A stretch of 63,779 nucleotides of DNA, filler included, from Folioceros fuciformis (taxonomy: Eukaryota): NCBI GenBank assembly GCA_049999805.1. It is 5 parts of 4 records of this genome, joined end to end, with 100 filler letters (N's around TTAATTAATTAA, not from the genome) between each part and the next. Parts side by side here need not be neighbours in the genome. Positions count along the whole stretch, not along the records: positions 19,677 to 48,644 come from JBNGIO010006356.1; 4 more parts are not named here. One strand, written 5' to 3'. The translations under genes were made by a program, and so were the position numbers. The notes beneath the pieces are model-generated. The model searched no databases. It worked only from the letters and a program-made list of their open reading frames with translations, and was not told the DNA's origin. Of the stretch, positions 14,960-50,046 are shown one piece after another (position 1 is the stretch's first letter; every line of letters starts with the position of its first letter).

Positions 14960-15430
14960 TAACGAAGTGCAAGGTCTGCGTAACGAAGTGCAAGGTCTGC
15001 GGAACGTAACGAAGTGCAAGGTCTGCGGAACGTAACGAAGTGCAAGGTCTGNNNNNNNNNNNNNNNNNNNNNNNNNNNNNNNNNNNNNNNNNNNNNNNNN
15101 NNNNNNNNNNNNNNNNNNNNNNNNNNNNNNNNNNNNNNNNNNNNNNNNNNNACGAAGTGCAAGGTCTGCGGAACGAAGTGCAAGGTCTGCGGAACGAAGT
15201 GCAAGGTCTGCGGAACGAAGTGCAAGGTCTGCGTAACGAAGTGCAAGGTCTGCGTAACGAAGTGCAAGGTCTGCGTAACGAAGTGCAAGGTCTGCGTACC
15301 GAAGTGCAAGGTCTGCGTACCGAAGTACAAGGTCTACGTAACCAAGTGCAAGGTCTACGTAACCAAGTGCAAGGTCTACATCATGAAGTGCAAGGTCTAT
15401 GTAAGGAAGTGCAAGGTCTACATAATGAGG
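14960..15430 (+). repeat. 21-bp tandem repeat (AACGAAGTGCAAGGTCTGCG[G/T]) spanning a gap; encodes an EVQGLRN heptad
   Basis: At least 16 visible copies, diverging toward the 3' end; gap at 15052-15151. Confidence 0.95.
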
Positions 15431-15879
15431 CAAATTCATCCCAACCTAGGCATAAAGACTATGTAGTTAGTGTGTTTTTAAGCCCCCATGCATACCTTGG
15501 TCTACTTTACCTTTGCTAACTGTTCTTGTTCATGAATGTGGATATGGAAGGGCACGAGGGTGGGGACGAGGACGAGGAAGAGAATGATCAAGGAAATGAG
15601 GAACTTGGCACTCAAGCTCGAAATCTAGTGTCTGGCAACTCAAATGGTGTCGCTCACAATGACAGACTCCCATATTACCAACTGGGCTATTGAAGGATCT
15701 ACTACTACGACTCATCGTTTATGACACACTCTAGCGATACTAGCATGGAATTGGTATATATGTCATGGTGATTTCATTATAAATAAACTTACATGTTTTA
15801 TAGGCTATATCAATCCAAAGGTTCATATCAACCTATGTTGCATGTGCCTAAGATAAGGATAATTGAAACAAGGCATTTA

Positions 15880-16749: not shown

Positions 16750-19516
16750 GTGGAGTTCAAAAAGTGAACACTCGTCTAGCTGACCCGTGCCCGTGGAGAG
16801 GGGTGCCGACGTGTGTGGAACCCTAGGTCGGGCGTGTGAGGGCGAGTTGGGGCCTCGGGAGCGTGCGAAAGGCGGTTGGGCATAGGCATGGGGGTGGGGT
16901 GCTTAGACTTGCCATGGCCTTGCCTAGGTGCACCAGGGGTTGAGGACCCTAAGAGCAGGCGGCCACGCAAGAAGGGGCCAAGGTTATGGGTGTAGGGTTA
17001 TTAAAGCCCAATGTGCTTAGACTAATGTGATTAGTCTAATAAAACTAGTGTGATAAGTTTAATTAGACTAATGTAATTAGTCTAAGATTAGTGTTTAATT
17101 ATCATTAGCTTAAGCTAATCTTTAGGAAGCCTCCTGCATAGCTTCCTGTGAGCTTCTTGTGAAGTCCCTTGGGAGCTTTTCTAGAGGGTATAAATACCCT
17201 CTTGAGCTCCCTTTGCAATAGAGCTGTGGGAGACACTGTGAGACCTCTCTTTCTCCATGCTCCTCTAATGATCCTTTCAGCGGGTGCATCAGATCTGGGG
17301 GCAAAGCTAGGCAACCAAGGAAGCGGGTGTGGGGGCAAAGCTAGGCAGCCAAGGAAGCGGGTGTGCGGTTATGTTCAGGTGGAAGGGCTGGAGAGCCAGG
17401 AGAGCCGGCCACCTCGGACTGGTTGGTTAGGGCGGATGGCGATCGGTTAAGTGGATCTAGACGGGGGTGGAGCCGGAGCTAGCCAGCCAAACGACACCCG
17501 GCCAGGTGGGAGCGTCGACTCTGGGTGAGTGGCCTGGAGGATAGCCAGACCAGCGAAGGGCCAGTTGTTCGACTAGCTATGCTGGACGATTGGGCAAAGC
17601 TGGAACATGGGGCGGTGTGGACCCCGTCAGATGTCTGTAGGTAGGGCCAGCGCCGATGGCCGCGATCGGGGCAGCCGACCTGGTCATCACGAATGGGCGG
17701 CGAGTGCAGAACGGCTGCCGGACCAGGCTCAAAAGGAGCAGGCCGACCGAGAGGCTGGCTGCCTGGCCACATCCCAGTGGCTAGACGCGACCAGCCAACC
17801 AGCGGGCTAGTTGGGCAGGTGGCTGGTTGTGGCAGCTTGTCACAGCTGGGCCAGACAGCCTAAGGCGGCGCTGGACTTGGGGCTAGACTGGGCTCTAACT
17901 GATTCAGGCCGAGCGGGCCAGCAGGTGGGGGGTTGGCTAGCAGAGGAGGCCCCAGTTGGGGGCAGGCCGCTCCGGCAGGTTGTGGCAAGCCGGAGCGGAT
18001 CAGGCAGACCGCCCAGCTTGTAGGGGCTGACCGGGGTGGACCTGAGCCGGGCCGGAGCCAGGAGGTGGCCGAGGGCTGGTTGGCTAGCTGACTGGCCACT
18101 GAGGGGCCTAGCCAGCATGCCAGCCCAGCCCAGCAGGCGAGCTGTCTGGCCAGGTCTAGGAGGGCAGGAGGCCTGGCATGTCGGTGGGCAGGCCAGCTGG
18201 AGAGTAGGCGTTCCGACTGGGCGTCTGGGGCTGGCTGTGGCTGCTCACGACTGGTGCCAGGTAGCCTGGAGCGTAGAGGAGCAGCCAGCCTACAGGCTCA
18301 TTGGCTGGCCTGGCTGGGCGGATCCAGGCTGGTCGGGAACGGGGTTGGATCTGGAGGTTGGCAAGTGGCTAGCAGCAACCGGGTCCTGGCCGGCAGGGCG
18401 CTCCGGGGCCTGGCAGGCCAGGGTTGGGTTGAAGCAGGCCGTGTCGGCGCGGGGGTAGGCTGGGTTTGGGCCGAGGTCCCGGGTGGATCTGGCCGAATGC
18501 AGGGCGGTGGTGTCGGATCGACACGCCAGGCAGCCAGGCAAGGCTGCCAGATCGTGGAGGCGGCCAAAGCCGACTAGGTAGCAGGTGTCGAATCGGCGGC
18601 TGCTGTTGAGGGCTCAGCCAGGCCGGGCCATGGCGGCTAGGCAGGGGGCTGAGTCGCAGCGGTCCTGCGATCCGCTGGTCGAGATGGAGCCAGGTAGGAG
18701 CTGGCTGGCAGGTACGTCTAGCTTGTTGGCCGGATCTAGCCAGCCCGGAGCTAGCAATGCGGCGGCGCTAGATCCACGGGTGTACCAGACCGCGGCCGGT
18801 CCCGGGCTGAGGACGGGGCTAGTTGGCTGGATGCAGCTGGAGGTAGGGTGGCCCCGCTGCTGGCGGCTGGCCAAGGTGGTTCCAGCCAGCCAGTCGGCAA
18901 GTTGGATGTATTGGAGGCGAAGCAGCCAAGCTGAATCCAGGCAGGAAGTCAGAAGAAAGGTGACGGGCTGTTGAGGAGTCTCGACAACAGTGAGCCTGGG
19001 CCGGCTGCATGCAGGCAACAGGCGGGCCAGCAAGCTGGCCGCCCGGATGGATCATGAGGCCAGCAGCGGCCCAGCTGCGGGTGGCTGGCCGGGGTGGATC
19101 CGGGTAGCCAGGCCGATGGGCTGGACCCTGGTCCGTCAGCGACCTGGCTGAATCGGGGCCGAAGCCGCCCGGCTAAAGGGGGCGAGTTCGGCCGGGATGG
19201 CTTGGCTGGTCACGGCTAGCCGCAACGGCTGAGGCCTTTGGCCAGCGGGCCCAAGTGACCCTTGGTTGGATCAAGTGCCAGGCCAAGCGGGCGGCCCAGC
19301 TTGTTGGTGGGGAGGCCCGCTACAAGTGAGGGGAAGATGGACTGGTCGGGATCATGTGCAGGCTGGCCTAGGCTGTGTTTAGCAAGATGGCTAGCTAGCT
19401 AGGATGGGGGTCGGCACCGAGTAAGTTGTATCAGTAACCTAGCTGACGACTAGTTGGTGGCAGGATCACAAGCAGGGTACGGGTTGGATCCAAGCAGACG
19501 GTGGCTGACTGAGGTG
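16750..19516. mobile_element. GC-rich low-complexity TE-like region (possible LTR/internal region of a large retroelement)
   Basis: Dense GGCTGGCC/CCAGCC motifs and many CTAG words, TATAAATA inside a palindrome at 17183-17202, ~34-bp direct duplication at 17297-17365. No recognisable protein. Confidence 0.4.
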
Positions 19517-19576: not shown

Positions 19577-22500
19577 NNNNNNNNNNNNNNNNNNNNNNNN
19601 NNNNNNNNNNNNNNNNNNNNTTAATTAATTAANNNNNNNNNNNNNNNNNNNNNNNNNNNNNNNNNNNNNNNNNNNNGTACACCCTCAGTTCTGGTCCTCA
19701 ACATTTTTGTTTTGACCTTATTCACCCGCCAATCCTCCATCTCTAATGGAGGCTCTTTCCACGGTTTATTTCTCTCTCTGAGATTATAACGACCTCGTGT
19801 TTCAGCTGCAGGAACCTCCTCAACAATGGGTATGTCACCATCTACTTCAGCATGCATATCAACTTCAACTTGCTGGTTCAAACCAGAGTCATCCACAGAA
19901 GTGCTGTCCAGTTCACCATCGTCAGGTTCAAGTGCGAAAGTTTCAGCATCTTCTTCAAAGTAACAAACTTCCACATCTGTTGGTTCAGCATTCTCTCCTG
20001 CAGGGGACCACTCCAAGACATCTTCGTCCTCATTGTCAGGCTGATCCACTACCCCACCATCAAGATTGGGGCTGTAAGACTGTACTTGATGGTTTTAACA
20101 AGCTCTTTTCATCAAAGATAACACTTCTTGCATGACTCACGACCCGTGACAAAGGGTCATATAGTTTGTATGCTTTTATACCATCAGTATACCCAATAAA
20201 AATTAACTTCTGAGCTCTGTCATGCAGCTTGGTCCTACGCTTGGGTTTGGGAACGAAGGCATACGCAGGTGAACCAAAGATCCTTAAATGTTGGACAGCA
20301 GGCTTCCGACCCCACCATGCCTCGAACGGAGTAGTACCAGGTAACACTCGAGTTGGCAGCCTGTTTAGTAAATAGTTGGCAGTGTTGATTGCCTCACCCC
20401 AATAATGCCGAGGCAGACGTGCTTGCTTGAGCAGGGCTCGTGCTGTCTCCTGAAGGAGCTGGTTCTTCTTCTTAGCTACGCCATTGAGTTGTGCAGTGTA
20501 CGGGACAGTCAGCTGTCGTTGGATGCCAAGACTCCGGCATTAAGCAGTGAACTCTCCTGAGGTATATTCCCCACCATTGTCGGATCGAAGGCATCTCAGA
20601 CTGCGACCATGATGGCGCTCTCCTAACTGCAAATACTCCTTGAAATGTTGCAGGGTCTCACTTTTATGCTTAAGAATATACAGCATGCAATAACGAGTGC
20701 AGTCATCAATGAAGGTCAGGAAAAATGAGCCACCACCAATCGAAGGTACAGAGATGGGACCACAAATGTCCGAGTGCACAAGCTCCAAGGGGACTACAGC
20801 CCGATGTGCTCCTGATTTATCACAAGGTAACTCATGATGCTTGCCATAAATGCAAGCCTCGCACAGGGGCAAATCCCCCACTTGTCCTGGAATCCCATCT
20901 GAATATAATGTGCTGTTGGTCATGGCCAGGAGTTTGTTTCCATGCGGATGCCCACAGTGTAAATGCCAGACAGTTGCAACTTCTTCTGGAGACAAGTTCC
21001 CACTAATGCCTGCAACGTGCAGCTCAGGTAACCTGCTCCCTAACAGGCTAAGTTGATAAATGTCATTAACAGGGTAGCCTTCCGCAACAGCAACTCGCGG
21101 ATCTCTACTCTCAACTATCGTGCATTTATCATCCTTGAACATGACGTGCATGGGTAGGTCAGATGTCAACTTGCGTACTGACAGCAAGTTTTTCGTGACC
21201 GCAGGTACGTGCAGAACATCTGCCAAATCCAAACTTCTGCCATGATGCAACTTCAAAGTTACTTTACCAGTCCCAAGAATAGGTAAAGTGCTCTCATCTC
21301 CCAACATTACTGACTGCGCTTCATTGTACGGTGTATAGTCACTGAAGCATGATTTGTTATGGCAGATGTGCGCAGAGGCACCAGAATCAATAAACCAGTC
21401 TGGAGTTCGAAATCCAGACGTGGTGAGGCACACTGTCAAAATAACTTGTGCAGGTTTCTTCTTCGGTGCATTCACAGCATGTGCCTCAGGCACCCCAGCA
21501 GCACCCTCCTTCCTAGGCTCTCCAGCCTTCTTTTTACGGCAATCACGTGCCCAATGACCAGGTATTCCGCACCAGTTGCAATTACTTGTCCTCTTTGGAT
21601 TGTTAGAGCTCTGTCCAGGTCCAGTTGACCTGCCCCCTCGACTAGCATTCCATGAACCTCCTATGCCTCTTATAAAGGGTTTACCCCTACCAGCAAACAG
21701 GACTTGCTGACCCTGTGTCTGCTGCCTTCCAGGTCTAGAGGCCAGCCGTGTGGCTTCCTCCTACAGCATGGCTCCAACAACACCGTTAAATGTCATGGAC
21801 TCTGCATCTAAATTCAAGGCCTTTGAGATTCTTGCTTCGACCTTTGCCATGGCCTGCTGGCCAGTGACAAACGGACCATAACTTGGAGGTAATGAGCTCA
21901 GCAGCCTGCATGCTGCCTCATAATCCGTGACTTTCACTCCTGTAGAGCTCAACTTAGCACGTGCAATGCGAAATCTTGCAATGTAGTGCTCAACCGACTC
22001 ACCCTCTGTCATGCGCAGGCTGTGATATCGTTCAGACACAGACATAGATGCAGCCATGTCGTGGGAGGCAAACATCATTGCCAGATGATCCCACATGTCT
22101 TTTGCTGTGTCACCTCGACCATCAGAGGCCTGCCTCAGCATCTCAGGGGCCAGGCCTGACCTGATGAGATTCTTGGCTTTGATGTCTCCAAGTGCCCACA
22201 CTGGATAATCTGCTGAAGTTACTGCAGGTTTTTCTACATCTCCATTCACCCCTGCCCACAGGTTCTTTTCCTCCAGAGCTCCTTGCATTCTCATTACCCA
22301 TATATCATACTCGCTGCCAGTGACCAGTCTGTCCTTCTCTTTAAATCCTCTGCTGGTCAGTGCCTGCAGGGCTGAGAGCATGTCCTCTCTCGCTTTGTCT
22401 TCATCACCCATTTTTAAGTTTCTATACCACTTATAGTCTTCGTGTGAATAATGTGTGTTCACCGAGGCACGATCAGAGGCAGCATCAACCTGAGTGTTCA

Positions 22501-22600
22501 GGTCATCATTATCCTCACTGAAGTCGTAGAGTCCTACCTCCTGAGCTAGTCTCCTTAACTATTCAGGTGTTGTATACGAAATCTCCTGATCACTCATAGA

Positions 22601-23149
22601 TCAGCAGCTCCCATCATGAGCTGAATCAGCTTGCTTTGACTGACACACTACATAGGTTGGATGACCCTGCTTGGACTGACTCGTCTGAGCGGCTCTCTCG
22701 TTTTCTTGCCAATTTGGCTTCATGATAACAAATATTTTCAAGTCAATTTGTTTCAAGTGTTCTTCTAACCTGGCAATATTGTCTGTCAAGGTATCTAAGG
22801 TGGTGAGAATGTGCTGGGTACGACAGAGGGCTGTACTCTTAATGTTATCAAGTCTTTGGGTCAAGTGGTGGACAGCAACTGCAAGGGATTCGTTTGATTC
22901 TCTGGCAGGTTGAGGAAAACGTTGTGGTGTGACACGATCTCTGAAAACAAACTGGTTTCTATTCTGGAGTGACCTACGATGGGCATGGATACTAGGATTG
23001 GCTATTGCTAGCTCAGGAATTCTATTTAAAAGATCTCTCCAGTCAGGACGACCTTGTCTACTAGGGGAAATATTAGTGACCTCATACGGGGGGACAGGAT
23101 GGTAAGTTCGTGACTCCGCTCCTTTGTTCCTCCTACGACGGTATGCCAT
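22601..23149 (-). CDS. Accessory ORF2 of copia A (coiled-coil), upstream of and in frame with gag
   Basis: 182-aa ATG-initiated ORF; 51-aa ungapped similarity to ORF 49339-50046 of copia B. Confidence 0.6.
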   Translation of the reverse strand: MAYRRRRNKGAESRTYHPVPPYEVTNISPSRQGRPDWRDLLNRIPELAIANPSIHAHRRSLQNRNQFVFRDRVTPQRFPQPARESNESLAVAVHHLTQRLDNIKSTALCRTQHILTTLDTLTDNIARLEEHLKQIDLKIFVIMKPNWQENERAAQTSQSKQGHPTYVVCQSKQADSAHDGSC

Positions 23150-23205
23150 GCAACATTCCCCACCAGTTCTAACTGCTTACTGGCTGTGCAGGTCCAGGAT
23201 CAGCG

Positions 23206-23415
23206 CTAGACGCGCCTTGCAAACTTCTTGTTGAGCATGAGTCTTGCACGCTTTCGAACAGAGAAGCACCAGCGCTTGGGATACAGGGCCATGACCTCCT
23301 CTCTAGCCAGGACTGATTCAACTGCCCGCTCAATCAGAAATGCAAGCTCTGGGTTCAAGAAAGGGCGCAAGAACATCATCCATTCAACCCACTGCTGCAG
23401 ATTCAGGTAGCCCAT
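23206..23415 (-). CDS. Accessory ORF1 of copia A (69 aa)
   Basis: ATG-initiated ORF just after the PBS; similar to the 40-aa ORF 49045-49167 of copia B. Confidence 0.45.
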   Translation of the reverse strand: MGYLNLQQWVEWMMFLRPFLNPELAFLIERAVESVLAREEVMALYPKRWCFSVRKRARLMLNKKFARRV

Positions 23416-23555
23416 GGCAGCAGATTTCCAGGGTTGCTAACTCGTGTGCAGGGCGTTGGTGTGATCCATGGGTTTTCTGTCAAGGTGACAAGAAGCATTT
23501 GCGCCTTGCTAGAGGGCGCAGGGGTCGTAGCAACTCCTGGCCTGCTCTGATACCA

Positions 23556-23856: not shown

Positions 23857-26800
23857 TGAAGAAATAGTTAAATAAGATTTTATAGTTTTATGAATAGTTA
23901 AAACAGACTAAGAAACTTGTGTATAAATGCTTTCATTTTCTGCTCAGTCAATAACCGTTTTTGTCTTTCGTGTGCTCATGTCTTCGCTTGCTATTGCTCG
24001 TGCACTTCTGATCCACGATCGCTTTATGGTATCAGAGCTGTAGGTAATCTATACGAGCATCCATGTGCGACAAGGCACGATGCCTAAGAGAGGATAGCCT
24101 CATAGGTGTCTAGGAGGAAGGTCTACATAGACACAGGGATTTCCTTCCCCGCAGTGACGGGTTTCATCTACTCGAGTTGCCAGGCGAACGACAACACATC
24201 TGCTTTCCGGCAACCCGCTTTGCAACACGCAGCCTGCCCTAACAGCTCAAGGCGCAGCGTGAGCCCATCATCCTTCTCTTGCAGACATGCATCAATAATT
24301 CCTCCAGTTGTTCCTGCATCGCAATTCAGGCGGTGCCTGGACAAACAGGCTAAGGAAATTGAAGCCCTCATTGGTTGCGCCAAAATTCGTGATTTGCTGG
24401 ATTTGGTTGATTTACTGCCGGCATCACTTAGCTTTATCTCAGATGCCAAACCCATCAGAATGCTTTGCACATCTAGCCTGTAGAATTCCAAAGGTCGGGC
24501 CGAAACCGTGGCCCAAAGGAACTTCGCACTTGTACGGACGTGTAGTGAGGCTCCCACATGTCGCGAGAGCGCGACTCGTCACTGACTTGCATTTGAGCTT
24601 TGCTGTGATGCCGCCTAGGAGACAGCAGGCGCCTCCTTCTGATGACGAAATTGACATAGATGCTGGTGGCATCGTTCATCCAAATCCAGACATTGATTCA
24701 CATCCTGTTGTTGAAGAACGGTTCAGGCGCCCTCAAGAGCCCACTGCTGGGAATCGCGATGGCAGACGACGAGAAGGTGTAGGCGTTCCCCCTCGTCACC
24801 AGCAGCCTGAGCAGGAGATTGATCTCAAGCAAACTACACAGCAGTCTGGTACTGCTACCTCGACGATCACAAATTCTGCAGCGATGACGTCCTCATCAAC
24901 GGGGGCATCCTCATCACCCATGGCGGCTCTTCCTCACTCAGCCCTGAAGATCGAATTCAAGGACAAGGATCATTTCAACAAAAACGATTACAACTCTTGG
25001 TCAATGAGATTGAGTAGATTCTGAAGGAAATGAGCTAATGATAGTTGTCGATGGGAGTGAGGTTTGCCCTGCTGTACAGCCAGCTAACGCAACGGCCGTT
25101 GCAGCAACTAATGCTGCAGACATCCTCACCTAGAAGGGCTCATTCCATCCTCATAGCGTTCTTGGATAGAAACATGTTGCCCCACACCTTGGGTGTTGAC
25201 ACCTCTGCAGCTGTGTGGATAGTTTTAGTCAAATTTATAAGGACAAGAGCAGTGCATCTCAGGTATTTGCACACAAGGATTTTTATGTCATGAGGATGAA
25301 GGATAACGAATCTGTGGAGTCCTACATTAATCGTTTCCAGACAGCATGTGCTACTTTGGCTTATTGTGGCACAATCCTTACTGAGGAACAAGCTGGAACA
25401 AGTCTACTTGCATCCTTACCTGAAGGCTACAGTCATTTCATGAGTTCCCAATTTGCCAGATCCTCAGCTACAACCGTAGGAGGATTCCCGACCCTAACTC
25501 TAGAAGAATTATTTGGTGCTTTGTTGGTAGAGGAACGTACTAAGAGTATTCACAAAAGCAAATAAGGTGCACACCAACATTCCAGAGTTCTCTTTTCTGG
25601 CCGAGGCAAAGGGAGTTTCCGTGGACAAGGCCGTGGTGGACAAGGACGAGGTGGCTATCCAATAGCCAAGCAACCCAACCTCCAAAGGAAGACCTTTACA
25701 TATAACTGGTGTAAGGTTCCAGGCCATTATGAGAGGGATTGTAGAAAGAAGCGTGCTGGTGAACCACGCAAGGAAGGCAATCTACCAGAATCAAATTTGG
25801 CTACAACCAAGCCACCTATAACTGCTAATTCCCCTTCCATCCTAGCTGTATGTTTGGTGTCAATCCAAATATAGTTTGATATGTGGTTTTTAGATTCGGG
25901 GGCCACCAGCCATATCTGCTTTGATAGGCATGCTTTTCGTGATTTTGTGCCTTCTTCTGATAACCACTACTTCGTTTTGTTAGGAGACAATAGTGGTCTT
26001 TTCATTAAGGGCTCGAGTTCAATCACGATTGAGATACCTAATTCAGACATCATGATTCTTATAGGTGTACTTTTTGTCCCAACCATGACTAAAAACTTAA
26101 TGTCTGTCATTAAACTAGCCGAGGAACACTCTTGTAGGATTTGCTTTGACCATACAGGCTGTTCCATCTCTAGCATACCCAGTTGCGATGAAATTTTCTC
26201 TGGCACTCTTTATAATGACTTGTATCTCTTGAATGTAAGAACCCTGCCACAACAGAGCACTGTTCAGGTCAGTCAACCTACATCTCTCTCCCCTACTCAA
26301 CTTTGGCAGTGCCGACTAGGGCATGTTAATTTTCAGCGCCTTTCTCTGTTAGTGAACAACACATCCTTTTGAGATTCCTTGTCTTTTCCCTTTGACAACC
26401 AGGCATTTTTTGACTCGTGTCAAGTAAGTAAAGCCATCTCCCAGCCATTTAGAGATCAAAATCTGTCTAGAGCTCCTAGTCTCCTTCATACAGTCCATAG
26501 TGACCTTTGTGGACCCATGTCCACAGCATCATTTGGTGGTGCCCATTACTTTCTAACATTTATTGATAGGTGGAGCCGCTACTGTATAGTTTATGTGCTC
26601 CACAGCAAAAGTGATACTTTCAGTTGTTTTCAAGATTTTGTCACCAAGGCACAGAGGCAGATAGGCTGTAAGCTCAAGATTTTCCGATCTGATAATGGTG
26701 GAGAATACACTAGTAATGCTTTTTCGGATTTTTGTTCTTTAGAGGGAGTGATCCATCAGTTCTCTGTGCCATATACCCCGGCACAAAATGCCTTTGCTGA

Positions 26801-29800
26801 ACGAAATATGACTCTTTAGGAAGCCACACTTTCTAGCTTATCTTTCGTTGGTTTAACTCGTGGCTATTGGGCTAAGGCACTTGTTGCTGCGAATTATGTT
26901 CAGAACTGACTCCCTACGAAGGAACTTGGTCTCATCACCCCCTATGAACGATGGACAGGCAAGAAGCCTCGCATCACTCATTTGCGGATTTTTGGCAGCC
27001 TGGCATATGCCCTTGTTCCTTCTCAATTTCGCAGCAAGCTGGACCCCAAAGCTGCAAGGCATATTTTCGTTGGTTATGCTGAAGATGTGAAGGGCTATAA
27101 GCTATTTGATCCCAGCACAAGGCAGCTGTCATATTCTCGCAGCATCATCTTTCATGAGCATGCTTTGTTGAGAAGATATGACATTTTGCTTTCTCCCTCT
27201 TCTGCACGTCTACCAACCACAATTCATGGTGTAGATGATGACATGGATTATGCTGCTGACACGGACACTGATGTTTCCACCTTTGATTTGAAGATTCAGC
27301 TGTAGGCTCAACTCCTTCAGCTTCACGGGGGCCCCACATGCAGTCACAGTCATCACCTTCTGAATCAGATGAGTTGGTCTTATCTCCCATTGCTGCACCT
27401 GTTCCTGTTGTTGAACTTGTAGCAGTTGACTCCTAAGTCACTCTTGAGCCTACTCTCGCTGAACCTTCAGCTGATGATGAAAATGAAACCTATGTTGCAC
27501 CTCCTTTCAGTGCTACCTCCGAACCGGCAATTGTAGCGGAACCCGTTCCATCTGTAGAAGTTGCTCCTAATCCTGCAAAAGATGTTCCCCTTAGATGTTC
27601 CTTTCGTCTTCGTAGACCTATGCATGAGTGGTTTGACCCTTCTTTCCAAGTTGGCCTTGTTGTGTTGGACTCTAATTTTGCAACTGCTCTTAGTGTAATA
27701 AACTTGCAAGAGCGTGACCATGAGGCATGACCTAAAAAACGCAAGGAGCACACACAAGAAAGTTCATATCAAGAAGAAAGGTGTTAAAATACAGAAAGAG
27801 TTTTGTAACCGTTTTAGTGAACAAACCCTAATTCAAACTTAAACCAATAACGGTTCATAGCTGGATGGGTAGCTAGTTAGGGCTGCTATGATATATAATA
27901 ATAATATATCTTAATATAGTGCCTCCTCCTCCTTAGGTGAACCTACCACATTCAAGGAGGACATTGAGGGTCCAGAATCCATGTTTTGGAAGGCTACCAT
28001 AGACTCTGAATATAATTCTCTTATATCTAATGGTACTTGGAAGCTTGTGAACTTGCCCTAGGGTCGCAAACCTATCTCATGTAAGTGAGTATTTAAGAAG
28101 AAGCTTAACAGATGGTAGCGTGGGCCGATATAAGGCAAGGCTTGTTGCCAAAGGATACAGCCAAGTTGCTGGTTTGGATTACAATGAGACGTTTGCTCCT
28201 GTGGTAAAATCTACTTCTGTAGGATCTTACTATCTTTGGCAGCACATTATGGACTACATGTCCACCAGCTCGACGTGAAGACGGCTTTTCTCAACGGCTC
28301 ACTTAAAGAGGAAATTTATATGCAGCAGCCAGAAGGCTATCAAGTAGATAAGGATAAATTGTGTTTGCTACTTAAAACAAAGTGTGTTTGCTACTTAAAA
28401 CACTTCATGGCCTCAAGCAATTCAGTAGAGCCTGGAATGAAACATTTCATTCTTTACTAATTGAGTTAGGATTCATCTGTTTAGATGCTGATAGTAGTGT
28501 CTATATACTTTGGGATGGAGAGGCTGATAGTAGTGTCTATATACTTTGGGATGGAGAGGATTTCCTAATATTGTCAGTTTACGTTGATGATAACTTCCTT
28601 TTTAGTACATCTTTGGTTTTGATGGCTAGAATTAATACTGTCTTGATGTCTCGTTTTGACATGATAGATTTAGGTGAGTTATGTTTTTCTTTAAGAGTTC
28701 AGTTTCAGTTCTCTTCTAATAGGCACACTGTGGAAATCCACTAGGAACATTTTGTTCACTAGTTGTTATAGCGTTTCCATATGTCAGATGCGCGTCCAGT
28801 CTCGACTCCAATGTCTACAGGTGAGAAGTTGTCAAAGGAGCCATGCCCGATAACACAAGAGGAGAAGGACTTGATGTCCACACGCCCTTACAGGCAAGCA
28901 ATCGGGAGTCTCATCTATTTAGCAGCCTGAACGAGGTTGGACATTGCGAGGGCTGTTAGTAATGTTTCACAGTTCCTCGAGAATCCCAGTGAAGCTCACT
29001 GGAAAGCTGTGAAACGGATCTTCCGTTATTTGAAGGGCACTCCGAGACTAGGGCTCAAGTATACGAAGCAGGCTAGAGGCTTGATCCTCACATCTTACTG
29101 TGATGCAAACTGGGCTGGGGACCTAGACTCTAGGAGAAGCATAGCATATTGCAATTTATTAGGAGGCTCCGTGGTTTTGTGGTCCAGCAAAAAGTTAACT
29201 ACCATTTGTTTATCTTCGACTGAAGCTGAGTATGGAGCTTTGTCTCAAGCTACCCGTGAGGTGATCTGGATACGTTCCTTCCTTAGAGGTCTCCAACAGC
29301 TACTAGCACGAGCTACAAGGGTATGGTGTGATAACCAATGAGCCATAGCCTTATCCAAGAATCTTGTCTTCCATGCTCGCTCAAAGCACATTGAGATCAC
29401 TCATCATTTTATTAGGCAAGCATCGGATACAAGTGAGGTGGAGGTAAAATATATCCCTACTGGTGATAATATAGCAAATTTGCTTACCAAAGTTTCACCC
29501 AAGCCCTTGCATTCTAAGCATACATCAGGACTATGTCTGATCATGCTTTCTCAAATGTTAGGTATAGCACATTAGGCTACTAGCCCTTACTGTATGCCTA
29601 GATCTCTATGTGATATACTCTCACCTTGAATTTTGTTTTTAGTGTCTACAACAGCTGGTCCGTTTTTAGTTTATTAACCAACCATGTAGAATCAAGTCAA
29701 GGTAAGTGGATCTTTTGTAGGCATGTTGAAATGTGTAAGGGTAGAGGAGAGCAGAGTGGATGAAGCTATAACTCCCAGGTAAGCGCCTGTTCTTTCTCAT

Positions 29801-30353
29801 CAAGGCCGTGATACTTTCTTTTCATGTTTTGTACCTGTAGAGGTAGCACTATCACCGTCAGGTATTTTGTTAGGATTCCTCATGAGTATGGTCTACTCCT
29901 CTTAGGTCATATGCTACTGTACCTCGCGTCTTGGGCATGACCCTTAGCATTACAAGTTGACATTTGCACTTAAGCTTGCTGTTCGGTCATTTTGGGTACG
30001 ACGATGTTTGTTAGTGGGTGCTGATATAAAGAGCTGTGAAATATTCATTGTGGTGTGAAATATCCATTGTGGAGGAGTGTACTTGGCAGTAAGAATCTAC
30101 ATGCAACTCAATGGCTAGATTCATAGAAGACAGACAGTAAACCAGGCAAGCAAGAGGACCTATTCATTGCAACTAAGAGGGAGTGAAGAAATAGTTAAAT
30201 AAGATTTTATAGTTTTATGAACAGTTAAAACAAACTAAGAAACTTGTGTATAAATGCTTTCATTTTCTGCTGAATTGATAACCGTTTTTGTCTTTCGTGC
30301 GGTCATGTCTTTGCTCGCACCTGCTCGTGCACTTCTGATCCACGATCGCTTTA
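23857..30353 (+). mobile_element. Full-length degenerate Ty1/copia element C with 170-bp LTRs and TACAT target-site duplication
   Basis: LTRs 23857-24026 and 30184-30353 (~13 mismatches by eye); PBS at 24027; PPT AAGAGGGAG before 30184; TSD at 23852-23856 and 30354-30358; gag, WFLDSGAT, VHSDLCGP, YVDD and RNase H motifs, with many stops and frameshifts. Confidence 0.95.
27728..27916 (-). mobile_element. ~190-bp AT-rich insertion within copia C pol, possible solo LTR in reverse orientation
   Basis: Interrupts the integrase-RT linker just before GEPTTFKE; minus strand reads TATTAAG...GGTCA; no clean TSD. Confidence 0.5.
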
Positions 30354-31563
30354 TACATATGACATGCAAGTGAATGGATGAGCTAAAGGTTGGTCATGTG
30401 CAATTCACTATCAATATGATGAAAGTCATAGTGTATCCCTTACATAAGTGGAGCCCTTATTTCTCTGACCACTACAAGTGTTCAAAACTAACTACACGGT
30501 TCAATTGAATGTACTATACATGCCCAAACTATTGCACCGCATCCACTTAAGCTTTAAAAATTGTTATGCCCCTGTTGTTATCCTATATGTAAACAACAAC
30601 CATGGGTTGACCCATCTAGTGTCTTGTGATCATGGAAGTAGATATGGTACCTCATAGTTCTAATGGAAACGCCTACGCACAACATAGGAATGCTTCGTCA
30701 TTCAAAAATTTAGTGTTTAGGATGCCATGTTTACGGCGCAGCTAATACCATTTCTAGTCTGCTCAGCGTGTCTCTTTCCAAGCCTGCATGCAGCTAGTAG
30801 TATCTTGTCATCCTTGCAACGTTTTTTCCAAGACTGCATCCAGCTCCTACGTGGCTTCCTTGCAGCTCTTTTTCCGTGCACGGAGCTAGTTTCTACCCTT
30901 CTTTGGACTAGTATCTGCCTTCCATAAAGCATTTCCTTTAACGGTTGTTTGATATGCGAGGCCTTGCCCGACCCCTTGTTCATCTTCTCTAGCTACTCTG
31001 GCACGATCATTCCTCTCCGAACGCTGAAGACCTTTCCACTCTTCATCTACCTGGGCACCACCATCCCTCTCAATGAGATGGCTCCGGACAGGCTATTTTC
31101 AGGAGAGCTTTGCCAGGCTTCAAGGATGCTGGCGTGCGTCTTATCACGGCCAGTCTTATCACCCTCACTTTCGGAGTTCTGGAGCAGATCAGTTCCCCAT
31201 GTCAAGCCTGTGCCTGGGCATCCTTGCCTTCGTCGCAGTGGACCAACTGCACTGGGTCGAACCTCTTGTGGTGATTGTGGCGTTTCCTGGGAATGGTTGC
31301 CTGAAAAATTTGCATGCAATGACAGCTTTAAACGATATCAGATGAGGTCTCAGAGTGACAGTCGAATCCTCGTTGCGGAGTTGGCATTCTGGAGCATCAT
31401 CACATGTCAGCAGAAGACGGGTGTCTTCAACAGTCTATTGTTGGGCTCCAAAATCTCGTACGCCCACCAAGATGGCTTACCTTCCCCCCGCACGTTCCCT
31501 GGGGTCCAAACCATGACACTGGCTTAAAAGAATCAACGTTCTCGAAAGCCACCAAGACGAGAG

Positions 31564-34236
31564 ATGCACCACATCTATGAGAAAGCCACTGCGTGTAACA
31601 GACTATCGGGCTGGAGACGGATCTTCCAGCGGGGCTCGTCGCTACGTTCTGATTCCAAGGGCATGCCGGATGATACGAACCCTCGTGTGCGTGCAGGATA
31701 CGAAGGAACCGTGACGGCTGAAACTGTGAGCGAACTATGTGATGCCGGAAGTCTCACCAAGGCTGTTGAGGCTTTGGGTGTCCTGGTGGAGACCGGCGGT
31801 TCTATTCTTAAGTCCCTCTTTTATGATGTCCTGAAGAAATGTGTAGCCCAGAAAGATCTTGCTCTGGGTCGCCGCGTCCATGCTTTTACGGTGCAGAAAG
31901 GGTACCAGTCAGACAAGTTCCTTTGCAATCACCTTCTGCGAATGTATGCTGCTCATGGCAGGTTGCAAGACGCGATGGACGTATTCACCAGGGTCACCAC
32001 ACCGGATGCCTTCATGTGGTCTTCCATGATTTCTGCACGTGTAAAGCATGGACAAGCCAAGCAGGCCATCCAACTGTACCATAGGATGCGTAAGTCAAAT
32101 GTTAAGCCGGATGGCCATGTATTTGTGGCAGCCCTTCAGGCTTGTGCAAGGGAAGCAGACCTGAAAGCTGGGCAGCAGGTGCATGCTGATGTCTTGGCCA
32201 GTGGGCTGGATCCTGATGTGTTTGTTTGTAATTGCTTGGTGGACATGTATGCAAAGTGTGGTAGCTTGGAAGACGCCCGAAGAGTGTTTCACGGCTTCAG
32301 TGGAAAAAATGTAGTGACATGGACTGCCATGATAGCAGCGTATTCCCAGCAGGGAATGGGGCAGGAAGCCCTTGGTCTGTACATTGCCATGCTAGAAGAA
32401 GGTATGGTCGTACCCGACTCTGTGACATTTGTGTGCCTCCTGCAGGCATGTGCAAGTGTAGGTGCGCCAGCGTTGGAATCGGGAAGATGTCTTCATACAC
32501 AAATTACAGAACGAGGACCCATAGGTGATTTGTTTGTAGCAAACAGCTTGGTAAACATGTATTCGAAGTGTGGGAGCTTGGAAGATGCTCGAAGAGTATT
32601 TGAAGGACTCGATCAAAAAGATGTCGTGACATGGAATGCCATGATAGCAGGGTATTCACAGCAGGGCATGGGGGAGGAAGCCCTTCATCTCTACCGTGCT
32701 ATGCAAGAGTGTGGTCTCGCTGCAGCTGATTCCGTGACATTTCAGTCCCTACTACAGGCATGCGCAAGTGTGGGTGCTCCAGCTTTGGAGACAGCGAAGC
32801 AGCTTCATGCACAGGTCAGAGAGCAAGGACATCAAGCTGATCTGTTTGTAGCCAATAGTTTGGTAAACATGTACACAAAGTGTGAGAGCATAGAGGATGC
32901 TGAGAAAGTGTTTAACGAACTCGTTCAGAAAGATGTGGTGACATGGAATGGCATGATAGCGGGGTATGTCCAGCAGGGCATGGGGCAGGAAGCTCTTAAC
33001 CTTTACAGTGCGATGCAAGAAGAAGGCATATCTGTACCCGACTCTGTGACATTTATCCGCCTCCTGCAGGCATGTGCAATTGTGGGCACCCCAGCTCTGG
33101 AGAAGGGGAAGCAGTTCCATACGCAAGTCAGGCAACGGGGACATGAAGTCGATCTGTTTGTTGCCAACAATTTGGTGAACATGTATGCAAAGTGTGGCAG
33201 CCTCGAGGATGCGCAGACTGTGTTTGACGGCATTGCTCAGAAGGATGTGGTAACATGGAATGCCATGATAGCAGGGTATTCTCAACAGGGCAAGGGTCTG
33301 GAAGCCCTTCGTCTTTATACAGCTATGCAAGAAAATGCCATGGCTATACCTGACTCCACCACATTTGTGTGCCTCCTGCAGGCATGTGCAGATGTGGCAG
33401 CTTTGCATCTGGGAAGGAAGCTACATGCACAGATTGAAGAGCAAGGGCTTGCTGGTGCTCTGTTTATAGCCCAGAGTCTTATAAACATGTATGGAAAGTC
33501 TGGCAGCATGGTTGATGCACAGCAGGTGTTTGATACATTACCTGAAAGAAACCTTGTCGCCTGGAACACACTGATCGCTGGGCACAGCCGCCAAGGCAGC
33601 GAGGTAGTCTTTGATATGATTGTCAAAATGAGCGAGGATGGTATACAACCAGATGGCCTCACATTCCTTGGTATACTAATGGTATGCAGTCATAAAGGTC
33701 TCGAGGAGAAGGGACAAGAATACTTCGAGGATATGAGGAGACTCTACAGGATCACCCCCACTGTAGAGCACTACACATGCATGGTGGATCTCCTTGGCCG
33801 TGCAGGCCGGCTGGATGAGGCACTAGCTTTGGTGAGGAGAATACCTGTAATGCTTGACGTTGCAGTTTGGCACACTCTGTTGGGTGCTTGTCAAAAATGG
33901 GGCAATGTGGAGGTAGGACGCCATGCTTTCGACCAAGCTGTGAAGCTAAACAAGAAAGATGCATCAGCATATGTGTTGATGTTGAACATATACAAGGGTG
34001 CCCAGATGTGGGATCTGGCACACGAGATGAAGTCAAGAAGGGTACAAATCAGGGCATGGAAGGATCCGGGCCAGAGCTGGTGGACAGATACAGGTGGGCT
34101 AGTGCACATTTTCGTTGCCGGACACACGAGGCATCTCAAAAGTCAAGCCAGGCTGAAACAGATACTTGCCAAAATGGAGAACAATGGGTGCGTGCCACAT
34201 GTGCCCTTGGCACCGGCAGGCTTATCTCATGGATGA
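31564..34236 (+). CDS. PLS-class PPR protein with E1/E2 and WW-type PG box, DYW deaminase truncated
   Basis: 890-aa intronless ORF with repeated P-L-S triplets (NSLVNMYxKCGSLEDA / DVVTWNAMIAGY / PDSVTFVCLLQAC), HYTCMVDLLGRAG, and DPGQSWWTD..VHIFVAG. Confidence 0.95.
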   Translation: MHHIYEKATACNRLSGWRRIFQRGSSLRSDSKGMPDDTNPRVRAGYEGTVTAETVSELCDAGSLTKAVEALGVLVETGGSILKSLFYDVLKKCVAQKDLALGRRVHAFTVQKGYQSDKFLCNHLLRMYAAHGRLQDAMDVFTRVTTPDAFMWSSMISARVKHGQAKQAIQLYHRMRKSNVKPDGHVFVAALQACAREADLKAGQQVHADVLASGLDPDVFVCNCLVDMYAKCGSLEDARRVFHGFSGKNVVTWTAMIAAYSQQGMGQEALGLYIAMLEEGMVVPDSVTFVCLLQACASVGAPALESGRCLHTQITERGPIGDLFVANSLVNMYSKCGSLEDARRVFEGLDQKDVVTWNAMIAGYSQQGMGEEALHLYRAMQECGLAAADSVTFQSLLQACASVGAPALETAKQLHAQVREQGHQADLFVANSLVNMYTKCESIEDAEKVFNELVQKDVVTWNGMIAGYVQQGMGQEALNLYSAMQEEGISVPDSVTFIRLLQACAIVGTPALEKGKQFHTQVRQRGHEVDLFVANNLVNMYAKCGSLEDAQTVFDGIAQKDVVTWNAMIAGYSQQGKGLEALRLYTAMQENAMAIPDSTTFVCLLQACADVAALHLGRKLHAQIEEQGLAGALFIAQSLINMYGKSGSMVDAQQVFDTLPERNLVAWNTLIAGHSRQGSEVVFDMIVKMSEDGIQPDGLTFLGILMVCSHKGLEEKGQEYFEDMRRLYRITPTVEHYTCMVDLLGRAGRLDEALALVRRIPVMLDVAVWHTLLGACQKWGNVEVGRHAFDQAVKLNKKDASAYVLMLNIYKGAQMWDLAHEMKSRRVQIRAWKDPGQSWWTDTGGLVHIFVAGHTRHLKSQARLKQILAKMENNGCVPHVPLAPAGLSHG

Positions 34237-40708: not shown

Positions 40709-41236
40709 CAATACTTTCAACAGCGGAAACTGTGCAGGATGCTCTGTACTGTGGAACAGATGTGATCAGATCTAGGATTTCTAACAGGAAGGGACGTGGG
40801 ATGCGCACCCTGTGCAGATTGTTCCTCACCTTTAGCCTTCTCCTTCTAATACATCGAATTCGCCAGCAACGTCGTCCCCGCTTCCCGCTTGGCAGAGTAA
40901 TCCAGGATTTAAAGCTTTGCTATTTTAAGAAATTGTTGCCACGTATTTCGCGCTGCAGCTCCCGGATGCTCTCGTCCACCACATGCGGCTTTGCAGCTTT
41001 AGGTCTGTTTGAGCTCTACATGCACGCTCACCGCTCGCATGTTAGAGGATCTAGGACTGTTACACGCAAAAACCCGGTTCCGTTACATTATAGTGTACGA
41101 TGCATCGATCATCGAACACGGAAATCCTGGATTGAGTCCCGTGGGAATAGCATGAGGACACCAGGTTTCTGCTCTGTTCTCTGGGAACAAGGATTTCTCC
41201 CTTGCAGCTTCCTTGCAGGTTGATACAGTCATCGCA

Positions 41237-43222
41237 ATGGCCGGAACTCAGCTGCTCAACAGCATCTGGAGAGTGTGGGTTGCCAGGCAATGCTTGCTGT
41301 TTCCGCAGAATCTGTGCACTGTAGGGAACCATTTTGCTCTGACGTCATGCAGCACGCAATTGACACACAGACTTCACGCAACCGCAGGGTTCTGGAAGAC
41401 TTTGCATGTTGTGCCCTTCATGGTTAGGGCAGTATCTGTTGTAGAGGAACTGACGGTACCAGTTGTAGGATGCTTTTCACCTTGTGGAATCGACCGGCAT
41501 TGGCTTTGGGAAACGTGTTCAGAGCGTTTGTTGATGTCGGGCCCTCGTGCAGGGAAAGCATGCAGCATCATGCACCTCGTCAAGGACCGGGGGAAAAGTT
41601 CAGAGATAGAGGAAGGGTCGGTAGAGTCTCAGCAGGTGGTCGAACTGCCTCCACCTCATTCGAAGAATGTGGAGGCATGGGAGGACTCAACAGGCCTTTC
41701 TTCTTCTTCGAGTGATCAGAAGAAAGTGAGTAGTGCAGACGGAAGCGGTGAGGGACTTGCACAGGGGTCTCTTCCCAAGGGACCCAATACAAGTTCTTCC
41801 TCGTTCTCACCCTTGGTTCGCACACAAGAAGGCCCCGAGGGCACGCCTAAACGTTCTCTGAAGGAAGTTGTGCAGGATGTAGAGGGGTTGCGACACGCGG
41901 AGGACCTCGTCTCCACTTTAGCGGGATTACCTGCCGAGCTTCCTGCAAGGGAATATATAGTCTTACTCAAGTCCGTTCCAGATAGCATGGTGTTCCCATT
42001 GTATACTTGGATACGGAAGGAGTCGAAACAAAAGCCTGATCTCCTTGTATGCCTTGCCACACACAGACGTTTATTAGCATCACAGGAATGGGGAAGGTTA
42101 GAGCGTCTTGTAGACGACATGAGGCAGCATCAATTGCCTCTAGATGTAAAATACTATTGCAGGATCATGAAGGAAGCCAGTGGTGCAGGGAGGCTAGACG
42201 TGTGTGAGAAGTGGTTTCGTATGATGAAGGAATTCGGATGCCAACCAGATAGGATAGTCTACAACACACTCATCCATGCGTACTTGAAGAAGAAAATGCA
42301 CGAGAAGGTGTTTTCCACGTTCCAGGAAATGCTAGGGAGTGGCATCTCTCCAGATTTGTTCACTTTCTGCCACCTCTTGTCCTCATGTCGAGACACTAGG
42401 GATGTGACAGGGGCAGCAAGACTCTTCACAGAGTTGAAGAGCTCTGCGATTCCACGGAACCATGTACCATCAAGCATTCTCTTGGACCTCTATGGGAAGT
42501 TTGGGATGACAGCAGAGGCAGCTGCCTTGTTTAAAAGTATGCAGGAGGAAGGGCTGCATCCAGACGCCACAGCGTACAACACAATGCTGCATGCTTTTGC
42601 AAAGGAAGGCATGGTGGATGAGGCAACATCGGTTTTTCAGGACTTCTGTCGATCTGGCTGTGGACCAGATAAGATCGTCTTCTGGACAATGCTGCGGATG
42701 TACTGTAAGACCAACCATCCTGGAAAGGCAGCTGAGCTCATGGCCACAATGAGGCAGCGCGGCTTGCCTGTCAGCGAAGACTGCTACTCTGCAGTGATGA
42801 TGGCCTACATCAATACCGAGCAGTGGGAAGATGCAGTCCACCATATGAAAGACTGGCAAATATCAGGCTGCCCTATATCAGTGAAATCCTACACTCTTAT
42901 GCTCTACGTCCTGTTCCGATCAGGCCAGCACTTGGCTTGTGAGCGCCTATTCCGCCGTATGATCTCAAAGAAGGGCTACAGGAACCACCTTCCAGCCTAC
43001 GAGACGATGATCCGGATCTATTACAAAACCAACCGTCCCAGACAAGCCATGTCCATCTACAATCTCATGAAGGAGAACGGCTGCACCCCGAATTCAAACG
43101 TACTGCGTTTCCTGCTCAGCTTGAACGTATCTGCAGGGGATCAACCGATGGTGAACATGCTGCGCCAGGAAATGAAGGGCAGTGAGGTTGAAAGCATGGA
43201 GACACTGAATGTCTCAGAGTAA
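41237..43222 (+). CDS. P-class PPR protein (organelle-targeted), intronless
   Basis: Tandem 35-aa repeats (PDRIVYNTLIHAY, PDATAYNTMLHAF, etc.) in the C-terminal half. True start codon uncertain. Confidence 0.92.
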   Translation: MAGTQLLNSIWRVWVARQCLLFPQNLCTVGNHFALTSCSTQLTHRLHATAGFWKTLHVVPFMVRAVSVVEELTVPVVGCFSPCGIDRHWLWETCSERLLMSGPRAGKACSIMHLVKDRGKSSEIEEGSVESQQVVELPPPHSKNVEAWEDSTGLSSSSSDQKKVSSADGSGEGLAQGSLPKGPNTSSSSFSPLVRTQEGPEGTPKRSLKEVVQDVEGLRHAEDLVSTLAGLPAELPAREYIVLLKSVPDSMVFPLYTWIRKESKQKPDLLVCLATHRRLLASQEWGRLERLVDDMRQHQLPLDVKYYCRIMKEASGAGRLDVCEKWFRMMKEFGCQPDRIVYNTLIHAYLKKKMHEKVFSTFQEMLGSGISPDLFTFCHLLSSCRDTRDVTGAARLFTELKSSAIPRNHVPSSILLDLYGKFGMTAEAAALFKSMQEEGLHPDATAYNTMLHAFAKEGMVDEATSVFQDFCRSGCGPDKIVFWTMLRMYCKTNHPGKAAELMATMRQRGLPVSEDCYSAVMMAYINTEQWEDAVHHMKDWQISGCPISVKSYTLMLYVLFRSGQHLACERLFRRMISKKGYRNHLPAYETMIRIYYKTNRPRQAMSIYNLMKENGCTPNSNVLRFLLSLNVSAGDQPMVNMLRQEMKGSEVESMETLNVSE

Positions 43223-48594: not shown

Positions 48595-49044
48595 CTACTC
48601 AGAAACGACTGTGCGCTGTTAAAGGCCAATTGAAGAGTCCTCGTNNNNNNNNNNNNNNNNNNNNNNNNNNNNNNNNNNNNNNNNNNNNTTAATTAATTAA
48701 NNNNNNNNNNNNNNNNNNNNNNNNNNNNNNNNNNNNNNNNNNNNGTGAAGGAGTATTGATGTTGGCATAATGAGATTAGGGTTATATTATATCCAGTTTC
48801 ATATTGTGTGTATAGTTTAAAATGTCTTACCTCTTCGCTAGGGTTACGACTGTTAGTAATAGTCACACCCATTCATGAATAGTTAAGTTTAAGTTTTAAT
48901 GTTTTACTTACTCTCTTTTTTCTTGAATATATACAATGTTATTTTTATAATAAATCTACATCTGCATGTAATTTCTTATGGTATCAGAGCTTCTGATGTA
49001 GGTTACATTCAAATGAGTGTACATTAGATTGTGCATTTAATTTC

Positions 49045-49167
49045 ATGCACAATCATGTCTCTTTTGCTTTCTTTCAAAAGGAAATTAGGTTTCTTTTTGA
49101 GAAAAGAAAAGAACATATTAAAATTCTTGTAGAAATTTTCTTTATATTTTATAAGGAGATGTGCTAA
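49045..49167 (+). CDS. Accessory ORF1 of copia B (40 aa, below the ORF-track cutoff)
   Basis: MHNHVSFAFFQKEIRFLFEKRKEHIKILVEIFFIFYKEMC; aligns without gaps to ORF1 of element A. Confidence 0.35.
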   Translation: MHNHVSFAFFQKEIRFLFEKRKEHIKILVEIFFIFYKEMC

Positions 49168-49338
49168 ACCTGGATCTTGTTCCAGTGCATCTCTAGTCAG
49201 ATTGCCTTAGGCAATTCTGGTAGAGGTACACTAGAACAACCGCCAGATCTTGCATACAGATTTCTGAAAATTATAGAGAATAGCTTACAGAAATGCATAT
49301 AATTTGCATTTTACAAGCTTCTACAAATTTAGCCGTAA

Positions 49339-50046
49339 ATGGCTACCAATGGAAACAATGTCTGGCGCATTCCTGTTGAGCGTGCAAACAACAACAGGAG
49401 GCAGCAAAATGGAAATCAAAACAGGCACAATCTTGTTGAGTACATCCATCAACACATCGTGACATGGCTGTTGCGCAATCAAGATCTGTCTGATCTCTGC
49501 AGAAACCTACAGGAGGCCTTCAATACAATAGTGGAGACTCTCTACCCTGGTCAGAGATATTTGACTTTTGCTCCTTACTTTCCCAGACAGTCGATTCCAC
49601 AAGTGGTGCGATTGCAGCGATCTTCTGGTGGTAACCCTAATCATAGGGGACTTCTCACAACACATGCTGCATCAGACACAGGGATTTTTCAGTTACTAAC
49701 CAGGCTTGAATCATATCAAAACCACATAAAAAGAAATCATGGCAGTGTCATTCGACGCCTTATTGAGTCTAGTGCTGGTATTCAAAGTCTGAAAGAACAA
49801 ATCTCTCACCTGAATTTCAAACTGTTGACTTTGTCGAGATCACATTTGCTTGCTAATTCCCCTCATTCTGGAGTATTACGCAGGCATACAAATAAGACAA
49901 ACAGAAGTCACAGATTTGATGCACCCAATTGTTGCCCATCATACTCCACCCACGCAAACAATAAGTGGAAGATGAGGCATTTAAAACTAGAAAACAGTTC
50001 AACAGCAGCACAGTGCAGAGTTTCAAACCCTGTTTATGTTCTGTGA
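49339..50046 (+). CDS. Accessory ORF2 of copia B (235 aa, coiled-coil segment)
   Basis: ATG-initiated, between PBS and gag; similar to ORF 22601-23149. Confidence 0.65.
   Translation: MATNGNNVWRIPVERANNNRRQQNGNQNRHNLVEYIHQHIVTWLLRNQDLSDLCRNLQEAFNTIVETLYPGQRYLTFAPYFPRQSIPQVVRLQRSSGGNPNHRGLLTTHAASDTGIFQLLTRLESYQNHIKRNHGSVIRRLIESSAGIQSLKEQISHLNFKLLTLSRSHLLANSPHSGVLRRHTNKTNRSHRFDAPNCCPSYSTHANNKWKMRHLKLENSSTAAQCRVSNPVYVL

Follow-up and report, generated by a model that had tools for sequence, protein, structure and literature searches.

Extra open reading frames (ORFs) in long terminal repeat (LTR) retrotransposons are, according to a review, mostly located between pol and the 3' LTR (PMC7264820). 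Sense-strand ORFs at the other end, between the 5' LTR or primer-binding site (PBS) and gag, are known from plant Ty3/gypsy lineages: a plant survey gives such ORFs, there called eORF-5'F, for Tekay (33%), TatII (23%) and Ogre (21%) (PMC6317226), and ORF0 of the rice element RetroSat2 is another 5' case in gypsy elements (PMC4093653). For Ty1/copia, the survey records a 3' ORF in SIRE (74%) and names no lineage that is characterised by a forward extra ORF at the 5' end; two small percentages are given for each of Bianca (5, 2) and Ikeros (4, 6), the eORF columns being unclear in the extracted sheet (PMC6317226). Copia elements are viewed as structurally uniform, with gag-pol only and an extra ORF in SIRE alone, on the 3' side. 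Here we describe two Ty1/copia elements, A and B, from Folioceros fuciformis (assembly GCA_049999805.1), in each of which a sense-strand ORF, of 182 codons in A and 235 codons in B, is positioned between PBS and gag. Both are contained in a joined stretch of 63,779 nucleotides, hereafter the window.

Pfam searches bear out the assignment of both elements to copia made in a preliminary description of this DNA. Element A, on the minus strand, is a broken copy in which gag, zf-CCHC, Pol_BBD and rve are found before the contig ends; gag, zinc knuckle, protease and integrase together occupy 19677-22411, up to a contig linker that cuts the element. Two in-frame stops, at 21761-21763 and 20540-20542, interrupt its gag-pol frame, which also changes near 20060-20094. 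Element B, on the plus strand, fills a 6.3-kb contig of its own and has an uninterrupted gag-pol frame of 1459 codons, 1452 of them counted from the ATG (50173-54531), with domains in the order GAG-PR-INT-RT-RH (Pfam Retrotran_gag_2 at residues 44-223, Pol_BBD at 347-423, rve at 551-648 and RVT_2 at 960-1204). The 3' part of its 5' LTR is present at 48745-48978, extending from the contig start after the linker to a point directly 5' of the PBS motif. Neither element has an LTR pair in the window, B likewise being cut by contig linkers. The polyproteins of A and B are 43.4% identical over 802 columns.

The leaders of the two elements share a common layout. The PBS motif, TGGTATCAGAGC, can be read at 23544-23555 (minus strand) in A, where it directly follows a CA dinucleotide, and at 48979-48990 (plus strand) in B; in these elements and in a third, C, discussed below, we take it to be a putative primer site for initiator tRNA-Met, the window containing no tRNA gene for comparison. 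From here the leader extends over 1132 nt in A and 1182 nt in B. In A, 394 nt containing nine ATGs (23150-23543) lead to ORF A (22601-23149), which comprises 182 codons from its ATG at 23149, plus a TGA, or 191 codons measured from stop to stop (22601-23176). A spacer of 189 nt (22412-22600) then separates ORF A from the gag ATG at 22411; an in-frame TAG stands in it at 22559-22561, and the 49 codons after this stop are open. In B, 348 AT-rich nucleotides containing six ATGs (48991-49338) lead to ORF B (49339-50046), of 235 codons plus a TGA, in which the first codon after the preceding stop is the ATG itself. The spacer here is 126 nt long (50047-50172) and holds three further in-frame stops, making four between ORF B and the start of gag at 50173, the last seven codons before that ATG being open. 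Both ORFs lie in sense orientation and in the gag frame, with offsets from ORF ATG to gag ATG of 738 nt (A) and 834 nt (B), both encoded proteins begin with Met-Ala, and both gags begin with MGDED. The leader of A contains, in addition, a second ORF at 23206-23436 (minus strand) of 69 codons from its ATG, with a hydrophobic start and no counterpart in B.

This anatomy agrees throughout with the coordinates, frames and stops that the preliminary description had reported, including the location of both ORFs between PBS and gag and the presence of only a TGA (22603-22601) and a TAG (22561-22559) between ORF A and the gag frame. The two peptides printed there were found 101 (A) and 115 (B) residues into the respective stop-to-stop frames. 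A further stop in A had been called clearly a CAG to TAG change: the TAG does stand opposite a Gln of B (GAML-stop-EEATR against GALLQEEATR), but the B codon is CAA, not CAG, so that the nature of the change is inferred rather than read. More generally, what had been observed was in part confirmed and its interpretation in part supported, the anatomy being real and non-random and conservation not being demonstrated.

In their position the two ORFs resemble the eORF-5'F of Ogre, Tekay and TatII and ORF0 of RetroSat2; those gypsy ORFs are, like ORFs A and B, orphan or highly heterogeneous sequences of unknown function (PMC6317226, PMC4093653). Those elements are Ty3/gypsy, unlike elements A and B, and no Pfam family reported for the gypsy 5' ORFs matched ORF A or ORF B at E<=0.1; there was no match either to the known retrotransposon extra-ORF domains PF10536 (plant mobile domain), PF04195 (Transposase_28) and PF03078 (Athila ORF-1). 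By the definition of Neumann et al. 2019, an eORF-5'F lies upstream of the polyprotein, in forward orientation and outside tandem repeats, which is true of both ORFs (no tandem repeats were found in either), and has at least 250 codons, which is more than are present in ORF A (191) or ORF B (235). The definition also excludes ORFs that belong to the polyprotein in other elements of the same group: the ORF is separate in A and B, and in C a frame fused to gag occurs, of unrelated sequence. ORFs such as these would have gone unrecorded in the survey because of its minimum of 250 codons for extra ORFs (PMC6317226). The preliminary statement that copia elements normally carry only gag-pol, with extra ORFs mostly 3', finds support in the survey data, which list no 5' case as typical of a copia lineage but count only ORFs of at least 250 codons (PMC6317226). 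The Env-like ORF of SIRE/Sirevirus elements, which average about 9.9 kb, is also an extra sense ORF in copia, fast-evolving and without a lineage-wide domain; it is situated between pol and the 3' LTR, whereas ORFs A and B are in the leader, a comparison made on the basis of description (PMC6317226). In our literature search we came across no account of an ORF preceding gag in a copia element, a result that does not in itself exclude the existence of one.

Two further comparisons may be drawn. LINE-1 ORF1p, which offers an analogy only, is basic, possesses a coiled-coil-like helix and is specified by a cistron of its own that precedes the enzymatic ORF in a shared RNA. LINE-1 is a non-LTR element, and ORFs A and B have no Pfam match to ORF1 families. 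In retroviruses and plant pararetroviruses, gag or the first main ORF can be preceded by a long leader in which upstream ATGs are numerous. Upstream ORFs in those leaders are short, unlike the single ORF of 182-235 codons that dominates the leader of A and of B. It is plausible that ORFs A and B represent a further variant within the known class of LTR-retrotransposon extra ORFs.

Several independent signs establish that both open frames are more than chance. The longest sense ORF of each leader (191 codons from stop to stop in A, 235 in B) was equalled in none of 2000 dinucleotide shuffles of that leader, for which the mean longest ORF was 83-84 codons and the maxima were 188 (A) and 190 (B); the remaining two sense frames of each leader are filled with stops. 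Measured against a null of stop-free random codons, T is in excess at codon position 3 in both ORF A (0.341 against 0.249, p=0.0035) and ORF B (0.336 against 0.272, p=0.015), in agreement with the figure of 0.30 in the polyproteins, and a position-by-base chi-square test yields p=0.019 for ORF A. Each ORF also scores best in its own frame under the gag-pol codon table of the other element, although the comparison is weighted towards that frame from the outset, the other two being penalised for their stops.

The encoded products are strongly basic, with isoelectric points of 9.94 (ORF A) and 10.74 (ORF B). Heptad-like hydrophobic periodicity, a mark of coiled-coil proteins, is present in both: a period of 3.5-3.6 residues, stronger than composition would account for, is seen at residues 93-135 of ORF A (p=0.002-0.009) and, within amphipathic stretches at approximately residues 25-95 and 113-160 of ORF B, at residues 48-91 (p<=0.001) and 116-157 (p=0.009). 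The periodic stretch of A and the second periodic stretch of B coincide with the block that the preliminary description had aligned. Structure prediction, proposed there as a check, gave a divided result. The single-sequence AlphaFold2 model of ORF A contains a long helix at residues 86-155 that is predicted with confidence, 10-residue blocks across 91-140 having average predicted local distance difference test (pLDDT) values of 88-97, while the helices modelled for ORF B, at residues 13-46, 50-68, 113-144 and 147-172, are of low confidence. Prediction of a two-copy complex of ORF A residues 80-160 lent no support to self-association and gave no verdict on it. The third-position T, the amphipathic periodicity and the helix in A are weaker signs than the frame lengths, and suggest a protein.

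The reading that we prefer, tentatively and at rather less than an even chance, is that ORFs A and B represent a real, fast-evolving extra ORF on the sense strand, forming a separate cistron upstream of gag at the same position in both elements and encoding a small, basic, largely helical protein. A separate cistron is favoured because of the MGDED start common to both gags and the four stops in the intact element B. Part of this reading is that the ORF would evolve too fast for sequence similarity to survive between elements 43% identical in their polyproteins. The two ORFs may derive from one old acquisition, which we prefer, or from two parallel ones; translation, shared origin and function of the ORFs are all matters that we infer.

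Element B could be followed in two DNA sequencing runs, X1 and X2, from one sample of the same organism, both of which contain it. Over 49187-50145 the dominant X1 and X2 contigs show two substitutions (one synonymous, at Ile40, and Ser51Pro) and no gaps, so that ORF B is open in the prevailing genomic form. Word depth in the ORF B region is 125-254 for the dominant contigs as against 7-13.5 for diverged ones, depth here not being equivalent to copy number. In the gag-pol of B, 28 of the 37 variant sites listed are synonymous and 26 of the 37 fall at codon position 3; another 146 sites lie outside the listing. A further run, X4, which we guess to be RNA, contained nothing matching 48745-52000.

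A number of results weigh against the preferred reading. The diverged copies of the ORF B region, approximately 86-90% alike, carry from 2 to 16 gap letters, and only three of the variant sites listed fall in ORF B, one of them synonymous and two not; these sites are too few for selection on ORF B to be judged. The position-by-base chi-square test is not significant for ORF B (p=0.11), G at codon position 1 is low in both ORFs (0.25 in A and 0.20 in B, compared with 0.32-0.33 in pol), and the ORF B model has a mean pLDDT of just 38.5. ATGs are present upstream of each ORF, nine in A and six in B, and both ORF starts have a T at -3. Furthermore, the N-terminal part of Gag is still 36.8% identical between A and B (77 of 209 positions), yet the ORFs themselves are without significant similarity to one another by BLASTP, shuffling or tblastn, and neither yielded a homologue in protein, structure or metagenome searches.

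The comparison of the two ORFs deserves some detail, since the preliminary description had called them conserved. The ungapped block of 51 residues on which that claim was based scores 30 under BLOSUM62, with identical residues at 8 positions, and is absent from the five segments reported by BLASTP, the best of which has an E value of 1.0. The best ungapped segment scores 32. Of 1000 shuffles, 38.9% attained this value, and 4.4% did as well as the best window of 51 residues. When helix was compared with helix, the score was equalled by 4.7% of 3000 full shuffles and by 10.3% of 3000 heptad-preserving shuffles, and the semi-global z-score was 0.17. A score of 30 for the block in fixed register was reached in none of 5000 within-segment shuffles, a result due to the shared hydrophobic spacing and to a register that had been picked with the alignment in view. 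Sequence conservation, as claimed, therefore fails, because heptad-preserving shuffles do as well in 10.3% of cases; a lack of significance against shuffled coiled-coil controls of this kind was what the preliminary description itself had named as refuting the claim. At the nucleotide level no similarity between the leaders of A and B was found, and when each ORF was compared by tblastn with the two remaining leaders and with the whole window, neither a further copy nor a significant match came to light.

Wider searches were similarly negative. ORF A had no match, at near or longer lengths, in a collection of 5.8 billion proteins. The single match of ORF B among 1.84 billion representative proteins (E=2.2e-4) was to an internally repetitive protein and was judged spurious. 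Pfam returned, at E<=0.1, just weak sub-threshold matches to unrelated families for both ORFs, and the best PDB sequence matches had E values of 0.15 and 0.26. Foldseek found nothing for the ORF A model. The closest resemblance to ORF A in the ESM Atlas, a bornavirus P24 cluster, had a score of 0.84, below the 0.9 from which matches carry weight, and ORF B had none. JGI metagenome contigs contained no match to ORF B and two 21-residue matches to ORF A, which were products of the search pattern itself. One of the two lies in a 242-residue ORF (L002:5593-6321), bacterial by eye, that has ten consecutive residues in common with ORF A, and was dismissed as a chance match. Residues 1-330 of the element B Gag gave nothing at E<=1e-5 against proteins of 798-2541 residues, and no match to the element B polyprotein was found among IMG/VR viral contigs.

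Taken further, the preferred reading would place A and B in an unrecognised bicistronic group of land-plant Ty1/copia elements, with a gene for a basic coiled-coil protein upstream of gag, kept since before the divergence to 43% identity and missed by surveys restricted to ORFs of at least 250 codons. We regard such a group as possible, though doubtful. If it exists, the superfamily would gain a second gene arrangement, in which divergent copia elements retain a protein encoded in the leader, and the protein would be a candidate cofactor or host-interaction factor. If, on the other hand, the frames are not kept among copies, these are merely long leaders with transient ORFs and of little interest.

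Foremost among the alternatives is that the leaders specify no functional protein, the frames being either tolerated accidents or upstream ORFs whose sole role is to hold down translation of gag-pol, whatever the peptide. The orphan character of the two sequences, their dissimilarity, the many upstream ATGs, a polar, low-information composition with an atypically low G content at codon position 1, and the poorly modelled ORF B would all be natural in such leaders. Accidental frames would nevertheless have to reach, in both elements, a length seen in none of the 2000 shuffles, and to combine this with an enrichment of third-position T and a significant helical periodicity, each again present in both; a purely regulatory upstream ORF would need neither 180-235 codons nor an amphipathic helix. 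We consider this explanation rather unlikely.

It is unlikely, too, that both ORFs are protein-coding but unrelated, having arisen by independent capture or de novo in fast-changing leaders, with a helix pattern that is merely generic. This would account for the want of sequence similarity between the ORFs and of nucleotide similarity between the leaders, and for the presence of two amphipathic regions in B and one in A. The extra ORFs of the plant survey, moreover, form numerous groups without similarity to one another, which is attributed there either to fast evolution or to independent acquisition (PMC6317226). Less easily explained is why independent events in two related elements should have led to the same position, size, orientation, frame, charge and start context.

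The preliminary description had offered, as one possibility, a long extension of Gag, and in this connection the third copia element is relevant. Element C (23857-30354, plus strand) is degenerate, with an LTR pair of 171 bp at 23857-24027 and 30184-30354 (92% alike) and the PBS motif at 24027-24038, and is 36-41% identical to element B. Its 881-nt leader includes an open frame of 207 codons (24299-24919) that continues without a break or change of frame into gag, which has its ATG at 24920. This upstream stretch, rich in proline, arginine and glutamine, has the appearance of a long N-terminal Gag extension, and all three copia elements of the window with a 5' end thus have some 200 open codons ahead of the gag domain. 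ORFs A and B might accordingly be remnants of an ancestral extension, still fused in C, cut off by stops in A and B, and decaying or lost. The gag frame shared by both ORFs is as expected from this, as are the 207 open codons directly upstream of the C gag ATG (matched by none of 2000 shuffles) and, in A, the presence of just two stops and of 49 open codons before the gag ATG (found in 4.85% of shuffles) in what is a decayed copy with other stops. The extension does not fit element B, however, which is intact over 1459 codons and has near-exact matches in X1 and X2, yet carries four in-frame stops in a 126-nt spacer, ahead of a gag start, MGDED, that it shares with A, and whose ORF has its ATG directly after a stop. 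Nor does the C extension, with its different composition, show similarity to ORF A or ORF B (best tblastn E values 0.40 and 0.72). Two of the five breaks in A lie in the 189-nt spacer, for which the probability is about 0.03 if the spacer decays like coding sequence (a rough binomial, by hand arithmetic). We therefore hold an origin as Gag remnants to be improbable. Nested insertion or capture of a host gene was rejected, no homologue being found anywhere and the position being the same in both elements, as was read-through of stops in B, of which there are four.

If, as preferred, ORFs A and B are separate cistrons, the question arises of how gag is translated behind a cistron of some 200 codons. 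The upstream ATGs and the T at -3 would give cap-dependent scanning poor access to both ORF and gag, and therefore imply another route, such as a shorter or spliced RNA, shunting or internal entry. In-frame, stop-free GT..AG pairs able to join the ORF to gag number 6 in B and 52 in A; the sites are weak, since in no pair is the donor convincing or the acceptor rich in pyrimidines, and the scan is uninformative regarding splicing. In a possible mechanism, the protein would be translated from the full-length element RNA, would bind nucleic acid by virtue of its positive charge and would self-associate through the long amphipathic helix, its target being either the RNA of the element itself, in packaging or in a switch between translation and packaging, or a host factor. 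All of these steps together are unlikely to hold.

The window also contains sequences other than the three elements. Four artificial linkers, each of the form N44-TTAATTAATTAA-N44 and with stops in all frames, are located at 19577-19676, 48645-48744, 55042-55141 and 58342-58441, and two N100 gaps are also present. Because of these linkers and gaps the window is to be regarded as a chain of separate contigs, in which the order of elements A and B does not imply that they are neighbours in the genome. One contig has at its opposite ends 203 bp that are 100% identical (55142-55344 and 58139-58341). Further retroelement sequences were recognised by eye: a copia RT-RNase H fragment at 58442-59636 (plus strand), which begins at a linker, and a frame of 1378 codons at 59453-63589 (plus strand) resembling a Ty3/gypsy polyprotein, with protease, RT, RNase H and integrase. 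Long intron-less frames at 31528-34236 and 41156-43222 (both plus strand) have translations that look, by eye, like pentatricopeptide-repeat proteins, in keeping with a land-plant source, the former having internal repeats of approximately 310 nt with 74-77% identity. A tandem array of a 21-nt unit, in approximately 17 copies, lies at 15110-15466 beside an N100 gap and has open frames on both strands. In the GC-rich region at 17000-19200, long open frames overlap one another on both strands and encode Pro/Ala/Gly/Arg-rich sequences of low-complexity appearance.

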